From UHGV virus genome UHGV-1624389: a DNA stretch of 26,134 nucleotides; one strand, given 5' to 3'. Numbering within the stretch: position 1 is the first letter of the stretch; every line of letters starts with the position of its first letter. The DNA comes from a virus. This document shows, piece after piece, positions 24,380 to 26,134 of this stretch. The position numbers and the translations under genes were made by a program. A model generated the notes under the pieces. It saw only the letters and a list, made by a program, of their open reading frames with translations. It searched no databases and had not been told where the DNA came from.

Positions 24380-24385
24380 ACAATA

Positions 24386-24454
24386 TGTACCTCCGGTGTA
24401 CATATTACATGATTGAAATGAACCTTCAAGATACTTGTACCTTAACGGTACAAG
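24386..24454. promoter_or_regulatory. Operator region with divergent pR-like and pRM-like promoters
   Basis: Inverted repeats with GTAC cores: TGTACCTCCGGTGTACA (24386-24402) and CTTGTACC-TTAAC-GGTACAAG (24434-24454). Minus strand carries TTGAAG, 16-bp spacer, TAATAT for cro. Plus strand carries TTGTAC (24435-24440), 17-bp spacer, TTTAAT (24458-24463), placing the start near the cI ATG. Confidence 0.55.
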
Positions 24455-24469
24455 GGTTTTAATTTCGTT

Positions 24470-25144
24470 ATGAAAACAATCCATGACATCCGGCGGTCTA
24501 ACGCCAGAAAACTGAGAGATGGTGTTGGCGGGAATTCTTCCTTTGCCACTATGATTGATCGCGAGCCAACCCAGACCAGCAGGTTTATGGGAGATGGTGC
24601 TACTAAAAATATCGGTGACAGCATGGCACGACACATCGAAAAATGTTTCGACCTGCCTGTCGGATGGCTCGATCAAGAACACCAGACAACGAACATCACA
24701 AAAAAACCTGATGTTTCAATCACTAATAAACAAATCACATTAGTCCCTGTCATATCATGGGTACAGGCCGGAGCATGGAAAGAAGTTGGATATTCTGAGG
24801 TTGATTTGAGCACAGCAGAAACGTATCCCTGCCCTGTACCCTGTGGGGAAATGACTTATATCTTGCGGGTGATAGGTGATTCAATGATTGATGAGTACCG
24901 CCCGGGAGACATGATTTTTGTCGATCCTGAAGTACCTGCCTGCCACGGTGACGACGTTATTGCATTGATGCACGATACAGGCGAAACCACCTTCAAAAGG
25001 TTGATAGAAGATGGGACACAGCGTTATCTCAAAGCGTTAAACCCAAACTGGCCTGAGCCTTACATTAAGATCAACGGTAATTGCTCTATAATTGGTACAG
25101 TGATTTTCTCAGGAAAACCAAGAAGATACAAAATCAAAGCCTAA
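24470..25144 (+). CDS. cI: CI-like repressor (HTH plus S24 LexA-like autopeptidase domain)
   Basis: 224 aa with a C-terminal ...VIGDSMIDEYRPGDMIFVDP...TFKRL... segment (Ser in GDSM, Lys in FKRL) typical of the S24 fold. Divergent from cro. Confidence 0.85.
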   Translation: MKTIHDIRRSNARKLRDGVGGNSSFATMIDREPTQTSRFMGDGATKNIGDSMARHIEKCFDLPVGWLDQEHQTTNITKKPDVSITNKQITLVPVISWVQAGAWKEVGYSEVDLSTAETYPCPVPCGEMTYILRVIGDSMIDEYRPGDMIFVDPEVPACHGDDVIALMHDTGETTFKRLIEDGTQRYLKALNPNWPEPYIKINGNCSIIGTVIFSGKPRRYKIKA

Positions 25145-25156
25145 TCAATGTTTATG

Positions 25157-25179
25157 AACCTGCTTCGGCAGGTTTTTTT
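25157..25179 (+). terminator. Intrinsic terminator downstream of cI
   Basis: AACCTGC-TTCG-GCAGGTT followed by TTTTTTT. Confidence 0.7.
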
Positions 25180-25183
25180 ATAC

Positions 25184-25216
25184 TTGACAATGTACCTTTG
25201 AGATACATAATGTACC
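25184..25216 (+). promoter_or_regulatory. pL-like promoter with GTAC operator repeats
   Basis: TTGACA (25184-25189), 16-bp spacer, CATAAT (25206-25211). AATGTACC is repeated at 25189-25196 and 25209-25216, overlapping the promoter. Confidence 0.55.
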
Positions 25217-25321
25217 CAAGCGAAACAACGAACAGGCAGGACGCCCACGAAGTAGCCGCCTGGGGCATATGAAGTCCAGGATGATTCGTTAGCAACAAAA
25301 AAGCGCCCTACAGGACGCTTA

Positions 25322-25333
25322 GCTCTTTAACAA
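25322..25333 (+). promoter_or_regulatory. BoxA-like element (nutL-like)
   Basis: GCTCTTTAACAA matches the boxA consensus (C/T)GCTCTTTAACAA in 12 positions. It lies about 110 nt downstream of the pL-like promoter. Confidence 0.45.
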
Positions 25334-25434
25334 TCTGGTCCCCATCAACAAGTAACTGATAACTTGAGGAGATGTGAAATGCACAAAACAGAACCCAAAA
25401 TCGTCGCGCCTGGCTACACAGATGAGGAAATTTA

Positions 25435-26134
25435 TGAGTGGATGACAAAGAAGCTTGAATCGCCACGGATAATCTAGACACTTCCGAGCCGTTGATAATA
25501 CTGGTTTTCATATTCTGTCGGTGACATCTGATCGCTGGAACCATGCCGACGCTTACTGTTATAAAACATTTCGATGTAATCAAAAATATCGCTGCGGGCT
25601 TCTTCCCGCGTTCCGTAGATCTTTTTCTTTATCCGTTCGCGTTTCAACAACTGGAAAAAGCTTTCTGCAACCGCATTATCATGGCAGTTACCGCGACGGC
25701 TCATGCTGCCCTCCAGGCCGTGTGATTTCAGGAACGACTGCCACTCATGGCTTGTGTACTGACTGCCCTGATCCGAATGAACCAGCACCTGTTTTTGGGG
25801 ATTACGGCGCCATACAGCCATCAGCAGTGCGTTCAGGACAATGTCCTTTGTCATCCGGGATTGCATGGACCAGCCGATAATTTTGCGTGAGAACAGATCA
25901 ACAACCACGGCAAGATACAGCCAGCCTTCGTGGGTCCTGATGTAGGTTATGTCCGTTACCCAACGCTTATCCGGAGCATCCGGATTGAACTGTCGCTGGA
26001 GCCTGTTGGGCGACACGATACTGGCCTCGCCTTTACGTGCCCGCGGGCTCCGGTATCCGACCTGAGCCTTTATCCCGACACGTTTCATCAGTCGCCAGAC
26101 TCTGTTCACTCCGCACTGTTGCCCGCTGTCCCGC
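25435..26134 (-). mobile_element. IS3-family insertion sequence, partial; extends beyond the right edge
   Basis: Contains an IS3-family orfB-type transposase. The left boundary is uncertain: the TGAGTGG... stretch at about 25435 is a guess at the terminal inverted repeat, made from memory of IS3-family ends. Confidence 0.6.
25474..26109 (-). CDS. IS3-family transposase OrfB (DDE integrase core)
   Basis: 211 aa: ...WVTDITYIRTHEGWLYLAVVVDLFSRKIIGWSM...HSDQGSQYTS...GNCHDNAVAESFF..., an RNase-H-like DDE pattern close to IS3 InsF as remembered. The orfA/frameshift region lies outside the window. Confidence 0.85.
   Translation of the reverse strand: MNRVWRLMKRVGIKAQVGYRSPRARKGEASIVSPNRLQRQFNPDAPDKRWVTDITYIRTHEGWLYLAVVVDLFSRKIIGWSMQSRMTKDIVLNALLMAVWRRNPQKQVLVHSDQGSQYTSHEWQSFLKSHGLEGSMSRRGNCHDNAVAESFFQLLKRERIKKKIYGTREEARSDIFDYIEMFYNSKRRHGSSDQMSPTEYENQYYQRLGSV

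Follow-up and report, generated by a model that had tools for sequence, protein, structure and literature searches.

Organization of the early-left region

UHGV-1624389 is a virus genome of 26,134 nucleotides (nt), and this whole stretch is called the window here. Its last 2 kb form the immunity region of a lambdoid prophage of the SfV/SfIV/e14 type. We examined positions 25145–25477, which directly follow the repressor gene. With this segment begins the early-left (pL) operon of a lambdoid prophage that is of the SfV/e14 type and has no N gene. Within this segment we found a structured RNA of ~64 nt (25227–25290, plus strand) that starts ~10 nt after the predicted pL start and that an earlier reading of the same DNA, referred to below as the preliminary description, had overlooked. 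This leader RNA, together with a boxA element further along the same transcript, is the main subject of the present work.

The gene upstream of the segment (24470–25144, plus strand) encodes a cI-type repressor (YmfK/LexA family, Peptidase_S24). The minus strand carries a Cro-like YdaS/YmfT gene and a YmfL gene and, further leftwards in the window, the replication, Q-type late and structural genes, all in the same orientation. As the closest intact relative we used Escherichia coli strain 1428, the locus of which is labeled L001; it is 100% identical to the window across 25145–25455, and its whole early region is PGAP-annotated.

The repressor gene is followed by its intrinsic terminator, a hairpin and then a T-run (25156–25175, plus strand), and by the pL promoter (25184–25211, plus strand), which consists of TTGACA at 25184–25189, a 16-nt spacer and CATAAT at 25206–25211. 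The preliminary description had recognized this succession of cI terminator and near-consensus promoter, and both are present where it placed them. The promoter matches at 11 of 12 positions, is the top-scoring one in the region and has a predicted start near 25218. Two operator-like repeats of the ATGTACC..GTACAT family, 17–19 nt long, overlap pL (25189–25207 and 25209–25227), and the second of these also covers the predicted start of the transcript and the first base of helix P1 of the leader RNA. Three further operator-like repeats lie between cI and cro, at pR/pRM (24385–24452), which makes five copies of the ATGTACC N7 GTACAT type in total. Because operator-like repeats overlap pL and recur between cI and cro, pL is a repressor-controlled promoter and not a chance one.

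A covariation-supported leader RNA follows pL

As judged by BLAST, positions 25223–25290 are the most widely conserved part of the region. The structure of the leader RNA was derived from an alignment of 109 distinct versions, using RNAalifold and explicit counting of pairs, and is a three-way junction. Two of its helices are supported by covariation: P1, which pairs 25227–25232 with 25285–25290, and P3, which pairs 25259–25263 with 25276–25280. A third element, the P2a hairpin with the loop AGGAC (25235–25237 with 25243–25245), is predicted; it is invariant and so shows no covariation. The sequence GCCCACGAAGUAGC at 25243–25256 is likewise invariant, and the junction AUGA at 25281–25284 is nearly so. 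Overall, ~26 nt between the helices are nearly invariant and read AGGCAGGANGCCCACGAAGUAGCY.

In the 109 sequences, 94.8% of the cells are paired, compared with 71.4% in shuffled sequences and 22–42% when the partners are slid. Compensatory changes occur in 10 of the 14 pairs, a single position showing as many as five pair types, and the covariation score (0.564 vs. 0.144) was reached by none of 500 shuffles. Counts of wobble pairs were ambiguous as to strand. The strand of the leader RNA was instead set by the promoter, by co-orientation with the flanking genes and by the antisense terminator that shields the element (see below). Readings of the element as a hammerhead, a tRNA-like structure, a kink-turn or a CsrA site were dropped, as the junction strands do not fit and GGA is not conserved.

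The leader RNA is widespread and precedes unrelated genes

The leader RNA was found in ~50 sequenced phage records from ten host genera: Escherichia, Shigella, Salmonella, Citrobacter, Klebsiella, Yersinia, Pectobacterium, Pantoea, Providencia and Aeromonas. Carriers include SfV, ST64B, ZF40, mEp237, mEp460, a T5-like Providencia phage and the e14 element of E. coli K-12, as well as Gifsy/phi80-like phages. A 316-nt query was matched by 1,825 of 5,426 complete E. coli genomes, and among the matches listed the shared part almost always includes the leader RNA. Additionally, a 23-nt core, AGGCAGGANGCCCACGAAGTAGC, has exact matches in at least 120 IMG/VR contigs, with a single copy at each locus.

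Scanned with a covariance model of the leader RNA, the window (93.4 bits), K-12 e14 (74.2 bits) and 24 kb of mEp237 each yielded a single copy. A second copy, comparable to the putR of phage HK022, was absent from the window, from the mEp237 stretch and from every IMG/VR locus, and the pR operon contains none. The e14 copy of K-12 MG1655 (L141, 2575–2655) lies between ymfK and ymfJ and is a variant that differs in P3 and has an additional C. The lytic T5-like Providencia phage vB_PreS_PR1 carries a copy scoring 76.8 bits in its terminal repeat (L017, 1194–1290), and PSTCR5 has one as well. In these T5-like phages the leader RNA belongs to the pre-early terminal repeat and is preceded by a consensus promoter, and in vB_PreS_PR1 it is followed after 7 nt by the boxA-like sequence CGCTCTTTAAAAA. 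Members of the Gifsy/phi80-like group have a second conserved stretch 15–70 nt after P1, ..UUAACGCGCAGCAGGU...ACGUUCCGCYRGCC.GGCGA.AAGGC.., seen at ~1570–1640 of L008 and also in L007, L014, L015, L016, L018 and L019. The structured leader may therefore extend further in this subgroup.

Searches with Rfam 15 gave no gathering-score match in the window, no match on plus-strand 25227–25290 at E values up to 10 and no match on the leader in ten related loci. Weak matches to STnc370, STnc50 and Phe_leader were traced to the two terminator hairpins read on the minus strand. In a collection of species-representative genomes, the only match to the core pattern was a chance one in an alphaproteobacterial metagenome-assembled genome, although K-12 e14 and many prophages carry the core. 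A literature search for the core sequence and related descriptions returned nothing relevant; it left out King et al. 2011 (J Bacteriol 193:5784), a paper about newly found phage antiterminator RNAs, so that a prior description is possible. The leader RNA is thus apparently undescribed, and it is very widespread.

We also compared the genomic context of the element across the family. A promoter-like site (at least 9 of 12 matches) is present within 75 nt upstream at 48% of 123 distinct loci, compared with 2.3% of control positions. P1 mostly starts 12–23 nt after the -10 element across the family, and 16 nt after it in the window. The promoter-proximal, operon-leader position of the RNA is constant. 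The nearest upstream open reading frames (ORFs) on the same strand encode 85 distinct repressor proteins with a mean column identity of 9%; 56 of the 85 match HTH_3, 31 match Peptidase_S24 and 18 match Phage_CI_repr. The first downstream ORFs, 100 of which were called mechanically, were assigned to at least 34 PHROGs, the 25 commonest of which include no annotated antiterminator. An RNA that stands behind diverse repressors and ahead of unrelated first genes, with ~26 nt nearly invariant, argues for a ligand supplied by the host and not for a phage protein. Most simply, such a module with an invariant core would target a conserved component of the host.

An antisense terminator and an rrn-type boxA form a conserved unit downstream of the leader RNA

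The sequence after the leader RNA contains an rrn-type boxA, GCTCTTTAACAA, at 25322–25333 on the plus strand, ~105 nt from the predicted pL start. It is the sole exact match in the window, in which about 0.003 exact matches are expected by simple arithmetic. The rrn boxA consensus is UGCUCUUUAACAA (13 bases), of which the window boxA covers 12. The preliminary description had reported a strong boxA match without a clear boxB, and both observations hold. No boxB-type hairpin, with a short stem and a GNRA-like pentaloop, is found 3' of boxA. The sole hairpin there, CAAGU/ACUUG (25349–25366, plus strand), starts 15 nt after boxA, has a 5-bp stem and an 8-nt loop, abuts the ribosome-binding site of the first gene and is not boxB-like.

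The preliminary description had also overlooked a hairpin at 25301–25320, which is a terminator for the opposite strand. Together with an adjacent A-run, it spans 25297–25320 and reads on the minus strand as the canonical intrinsic terminator AAGCGUCCUGUAGGGCGCUU followed by U6. On the plus strand the same hairpin lacks a U-tract and contains a C.A mismatch, at a position which is a G.U pair on the minus strand, and this mismatch is kept across 16 distinct contexts of the hairpin-boxA unit. The strand asymmetry of this position indicates a hairpin built to stop antisense transcription while only weakly hindering transcripts from pL. A candidate source of the antisense transcription is a convergent gene, for example one of the ECs1072 type described below. 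Antisense-strand intrinsic terminators are frequent within 1.5 kb 3' of the leader RNA, occurring at 97% of 92 loci with a mean of 2.66 per locus; terminator-like sites on the sense strand occur at 42% of the same loci, with a mean of 0.53.

BoxA directly follows the hairpin. The A-run, hairpin and boxA are kept as one unit, and the sequence 3' of boxA varies. Exact copies of boxA are present in 18 of 128 distinct downstream contexts and three more contexts have a copy with one mismatch, compared with none on the antisense control. Because it accompanies only ~16% of the leader-RNA family, boxA is a real but accessory element.

The first gene is interrupted by an insertion sequence and does not encode N

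The preliminary description had noted a single ORF, of 32 codons and running into an insertion sequence (IS), and had seen no Arg-rich, N-like ORF before the IS. The ORF runs from the ATG at 25379 to the TAG at 25475–25477, is preceded by GAGGAG at 25366–25371 and consists of 26 native codons (25379–25455) and six IS codons (25456–25477, plus strand; ESPRII, then stop). The third base of codon 26, 25456, is the first IS base. As had been noted, the TAG shares two bases with the stop of the transposase gene on the opposite strand (25474–25476).

Alignment to intact relatives, the check that the preliminary description had called for, placed the junction exactly at 25455/25456 and recovered the uninterrupted gene. 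All relatives in the phage and E. coli collections cease matching at query position 311, which is window position 25455, and the sequence from 25456 on has 100%-identical copies on unrelated plasmids, with other DNA in front. Thus, an IS has truncated the first early-left gene. The element (25456–26134, minus strand) continues past the end of the window, and a complete copy measures 1229 bp with the terminal inverted repeats TGAATCGCCACGG... and ...CCGTGGCGATTCA (TG...CA type). Its transposase contains the domains rve, rve_2 and rve_3, and its full-length identity of 89.5% to an ISEhe3-annotated element in phage SfIV makes it an ISEhe3-like member of the IS3 family. The same junction is absent from all 5,426 complete E. 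coli genomes, which indicates a strain-specific insertion. The IS is a recent, strain-specific lesion that has inactivated a small gene and put 1.2 kb of antisense IS into the operon; the truncated ORF itself is ordinary IS damage. The insertion point coincides with the 5' edge of a hairpin of 9 bp within the gene (GAAGCTGG..CCAGCTTC; L001 6306–6331, corresponding to the window from ~25450 onward), and this hairpin scored as terminator-like on the minus strand.

In the intact relative, the ORF runs to 68 codons, MHKTEPKIVAPGYTDEEIYEWMTKKLAAINQLREVLSYRQETIDSLKKLDQEITVLSQDVTLDIVQTN. The 68-aa protein is a full-length match to phrog_1744 (E = 6e-35), which is annotated as function unknown; it matches no Pfam family and contains no Arg-rich motif. 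Since the phrog_1744 protein lacks this motif, no N was lost to the IS. Truncation of the first early-left gene, which the preliminary description had considered, is therefore borne out, and the loss of N that it might have implied is not.

In the early-left operon of the intact relative, the 68-aa gene is overlapped at its 3' end by a convergent gene of the ECs1072 family. A frameshifted ORF comes next, and then yfdP, yfdQ, a hypothetical gene and a PrtN-like gene. Its pR operon encodes Cro, YmfL, a DUF4222 protein, an O-like HTH protein, PerC, RusA, KilA-N and DUF968 proteins, and continues to Q. N is annotated nowhere in this annotated early region, nor in SfV, K-12 e14 or mEp237. With intact relatives lacking N both at the locus and elsewhere in the annotated early region, the N-less state is the native one. 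As evidence against its reading, the preliminary description had named intact relatives with the same short ORF and no N; they indeed have no N, and in place of the short ORF they have 68 codons. The N-independent route that it had proposed as a second possibility likewise gains support from the missing N annotation, and the likely device for such a route, the conserved leader RNA, is what it had missed.

Transcripts from pL meet several obstacles

In the intact relative, transcripts from pL must pass three barriers before they reach yfdP/yfdQ. One is a terminator-like site at L001 6516–6531, 75 nt past the 68-aa gene, and another is the antisense of the 435-nt convergent gene. The distance from the 68-aa gene to yfdP is roughly 870 nt, part of which is annotated as a frameshifted pseudogene. 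Being at best poorly translated in the sense direction, these ~870 nt are an obvious Rho substrate. Similarly, SfV has an annotated terminator within the same operon, and in e14 the convergent gene ymfI lies between ymfJ and xisE/intE. Both ymfJ and the distal intE of K-12 e14 are late-induced in the SOS response (PMC11002266), and intE may have its own promoter.

The third barrier ahead of yfdP/yfdQ in the intact relative is a non-coding stretch resembling STnc100 (L001 6958–7181, plus strand), with 43.4 bits against a gathering score of 47. Sub-threshold matches of this kind (29–43 bits vs. 47) recur in the early-left operon of the intact relative, SfV, ST64B and K-12 e14; further coordinates are L004 2160–2375, L005 1855–1973 and L141 3346–3567. 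The e14 copy includes a DicF-like 3' part (28.5 bits). In the early-left operon of the Salmonella phage SPN3UB, a strong isrB match of 99.3 bits lies antisense between a small ORF and recE (L008 2263–2350, minus strand).

A possible role in antitermination

We propose, giving it an even chance or slightly less, that the leader RNA brings about N-independent processive antitermination and that boxA and Nus factors help it to do so in this phage. The leader RNA would be a cis-acting device working on the very RNA polymerase that has just made it, following the logic of the HK022 put RNA by way of an unrelated sequence and fold. BoxA would recruit NusB/NusE and other Nus factors, adding an rrn-like anti-Rho activity in this phage. 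With both elements in place, transcription from pL would become resistant to Rho and to terminators, and could then cross the long untranslated stretch into the later early-left genes.

Several points weigh against this proposal. BoxA accompanies only ~16% of the members, the leader RNA is present as a single copy per phage with none in the pR operon, and put and the leader RNA are not homologous. Sense-strand terminator-like sites occur within 1.5 kb at only 42% of the loci, and Rho terminators are not predictable. The leader RNA is no more stable than shuffled sequence (z = -0.98), so that the case for a structure rests on covariation, which can be inflated by relatedness. Moreover, the presence of the RNA in a lytic T5-like phage would fit an early trans-acting RNA equally well.

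The last point leads to the strongest alternative, in which the leader RNA is an early RNA with another job, such as a trans-acting small RNA, a decoy for a host or defence protein or a 5' stabilizer or processing signal, and readthrough is left to boxA and Nus factors alone. We consider this unlikely, though a substantial possibility. An invariant core with freely covarying helices would suit any conserved host ligand, and the RNA is the first product of the strongest early promoter, a position echoed in the pre-early terminal repeat of the T5-like phage. The scarcity of nearby sense-strand terminator-like sites and the exactness of the rrn-type boxA match are also in keeping with it. Against this stand the constant promoter-proximal, operon-leader position and the lack of any terminator or processing signal that consistently follows the RNA and could release it. 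Furthermore, the ~84% of members without boxA would be left with no antitermination device, though N is not annotated in those examined.

That the leader is a riboswitch-like sensor, in which a ligand or signal sets the termination of pL transcripts at the next hairpin, is quite improbable. A three-way junction of ~64 nt with a nearly invariant core has the typical size of an aptamer, and AGCGCCCU (25303–25310) could pair either with the 3' arm of the hairpin or with AGGACGC in the RNA (25238–25244). However, the sequence after P1 is wholly different between subgroups, the first sense-strand terminator-like site is at a median distance of 576 nt, the design of the hairpin at 25301–25320 is that of a terminator for the other strand, and no Rfam riboswitch matches.

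Even less credible is an element that acts as DNA, as an extra operator or recombination site, or that reflects recent horizontal transfer, without any RNA function. The overlap of the second operator copy with the first base of P1 and the near identity of the core in all members would agree with such a site, but it is contradicted by covariation, the two helices being kept paired through four to five pair types, and by members that stand behind unrelated repressors with different operators. Lastly, the strong boxA 3' of pL and the interrupted first gene might suggest an N/nut system of the lambda type that lost its N gene to the IS. This reading has next to no probability and is refuted by the intact relatives, since the uninterrupted gene of the 100%-identical relative encodes the 68-aa phrog_1744 protein, there is no boxB and N is annotated in no relative examined.

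Returning to antitermination by the leader RNA, we suggest tentatively, in the knowledge that the chances are somewhat against it, that 25227–25290 represents a further class of phage leader RNAs, the second after put and unrelated to it in structure, whose members reprogram the elongation complex of the host with no need for a phage protein. As part of the same tentative proposal, this class would be far more widespread than put, with members in as many as about one in three complete E. coli genomes, and possibly Nus-assisted, unlike put. To our knowledge, RNA-only processive antitermination has rested essentially on a single sequence family, that of HK022 put with its few homologues. If the proposal is true, bypassing N by means of an RNA would be a general solution among enterobacterial phages, and would explain how the early-left genes (recombination, excision, kil) are expressed in many N-less lambdoid prophages. 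The copy between ymfK and ymfJ in E. coli K-12 e14 would then offer a very tractable test system. Should the RNA have another role, for example that of an early host-factor decoy, a core kept almost invariant in phages of many genera and of both temperate and lytic lifestyles would still mark an undescribed interface between phage and host.

Comparison with known systems

Structured leader RNAs of temperate-phage early operons are also found in P4 (CI RNA) and in P1/P7 (c4). The P4 CI RNA and c4 are processed and act by pairing with repeated downstream targets. Unlike these, the leader RNA has no complementary repeats conserved near it and no match to any Rfam family, among which a c4 model would be expected.

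The lambda nutL/N system occupies the same position between pL and the first early-left gene, likewise has a boxA and is likewise followed by terminators and untranslated stretches. It differs in having boxB and N, neither of which belongs to the leader in the window. The lambda boxA, CGCUCUUA, is weaker than the full rrn-type consensus, whereas the window boxA is of that full type.

In the rrn leaders, the 12-nt boxA is identical and is also preceded by a hairpin, which is boxB in that case. As in rrn, the transcript downstream of boxA in the window is long and poorly translated, and would otherwise be open to attack by Rho. Unlike in rrn, it belongs to a phage early operon, is accessory (~16% of the family) and follows a hairpin that is an antisense terminator rather than boxB. 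BoxA also occurs upstream of CRISPR arrays in Salmonella (PMC7665894).

The closest parallel is the put RNA of HK022 and HK639. Like the leader RNA, put is encoded in cis, measures ~65–75 nt and directly follows pL in a lambdoid phage without N. Neither RNA has an evident dedicated phage protein partner, and in both cases conservation suggests a host target, which for put is the zinc-binding domain of the RNA polymerase beta' subunit (PMC9378689). Put folds into two stems, of which stem I contains a pseudoknot/triplex, and has an A9-G35 platform (PMC9378689), unlike the three-way junction closed by P1 that covariation supports for the leader RNA. Short shared strings (CGAAC, CAGGAUGA) had suggested homology, which was rejected by the covariation-supported fold and by covariance models in both directions: a put model (HK022 putL and putR, HK639 putL) matched neither the leader of the window nor that of any of five relatives, and the leader-RNA model found no match at put sites. 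King et al. 2011 are reportedly the source of ten known put sequences, and all putL copies are said to share AACCAU. This motif is absent from the leader RNA. Additionally, put has a second copy, putR, which the leader RNA does not, and boxA is added in some members of the leader-RNA family. While put is not known to need Nus factors, the leader RNA may differ in depending on them. A weak hint in this direction is that it is carried by mEp237 and mEp460, which belong to a collection described as Nus-dependent (PMC11893012). Thus, the leader RNA is not a member of the put family, and it may nevertheless work like put.

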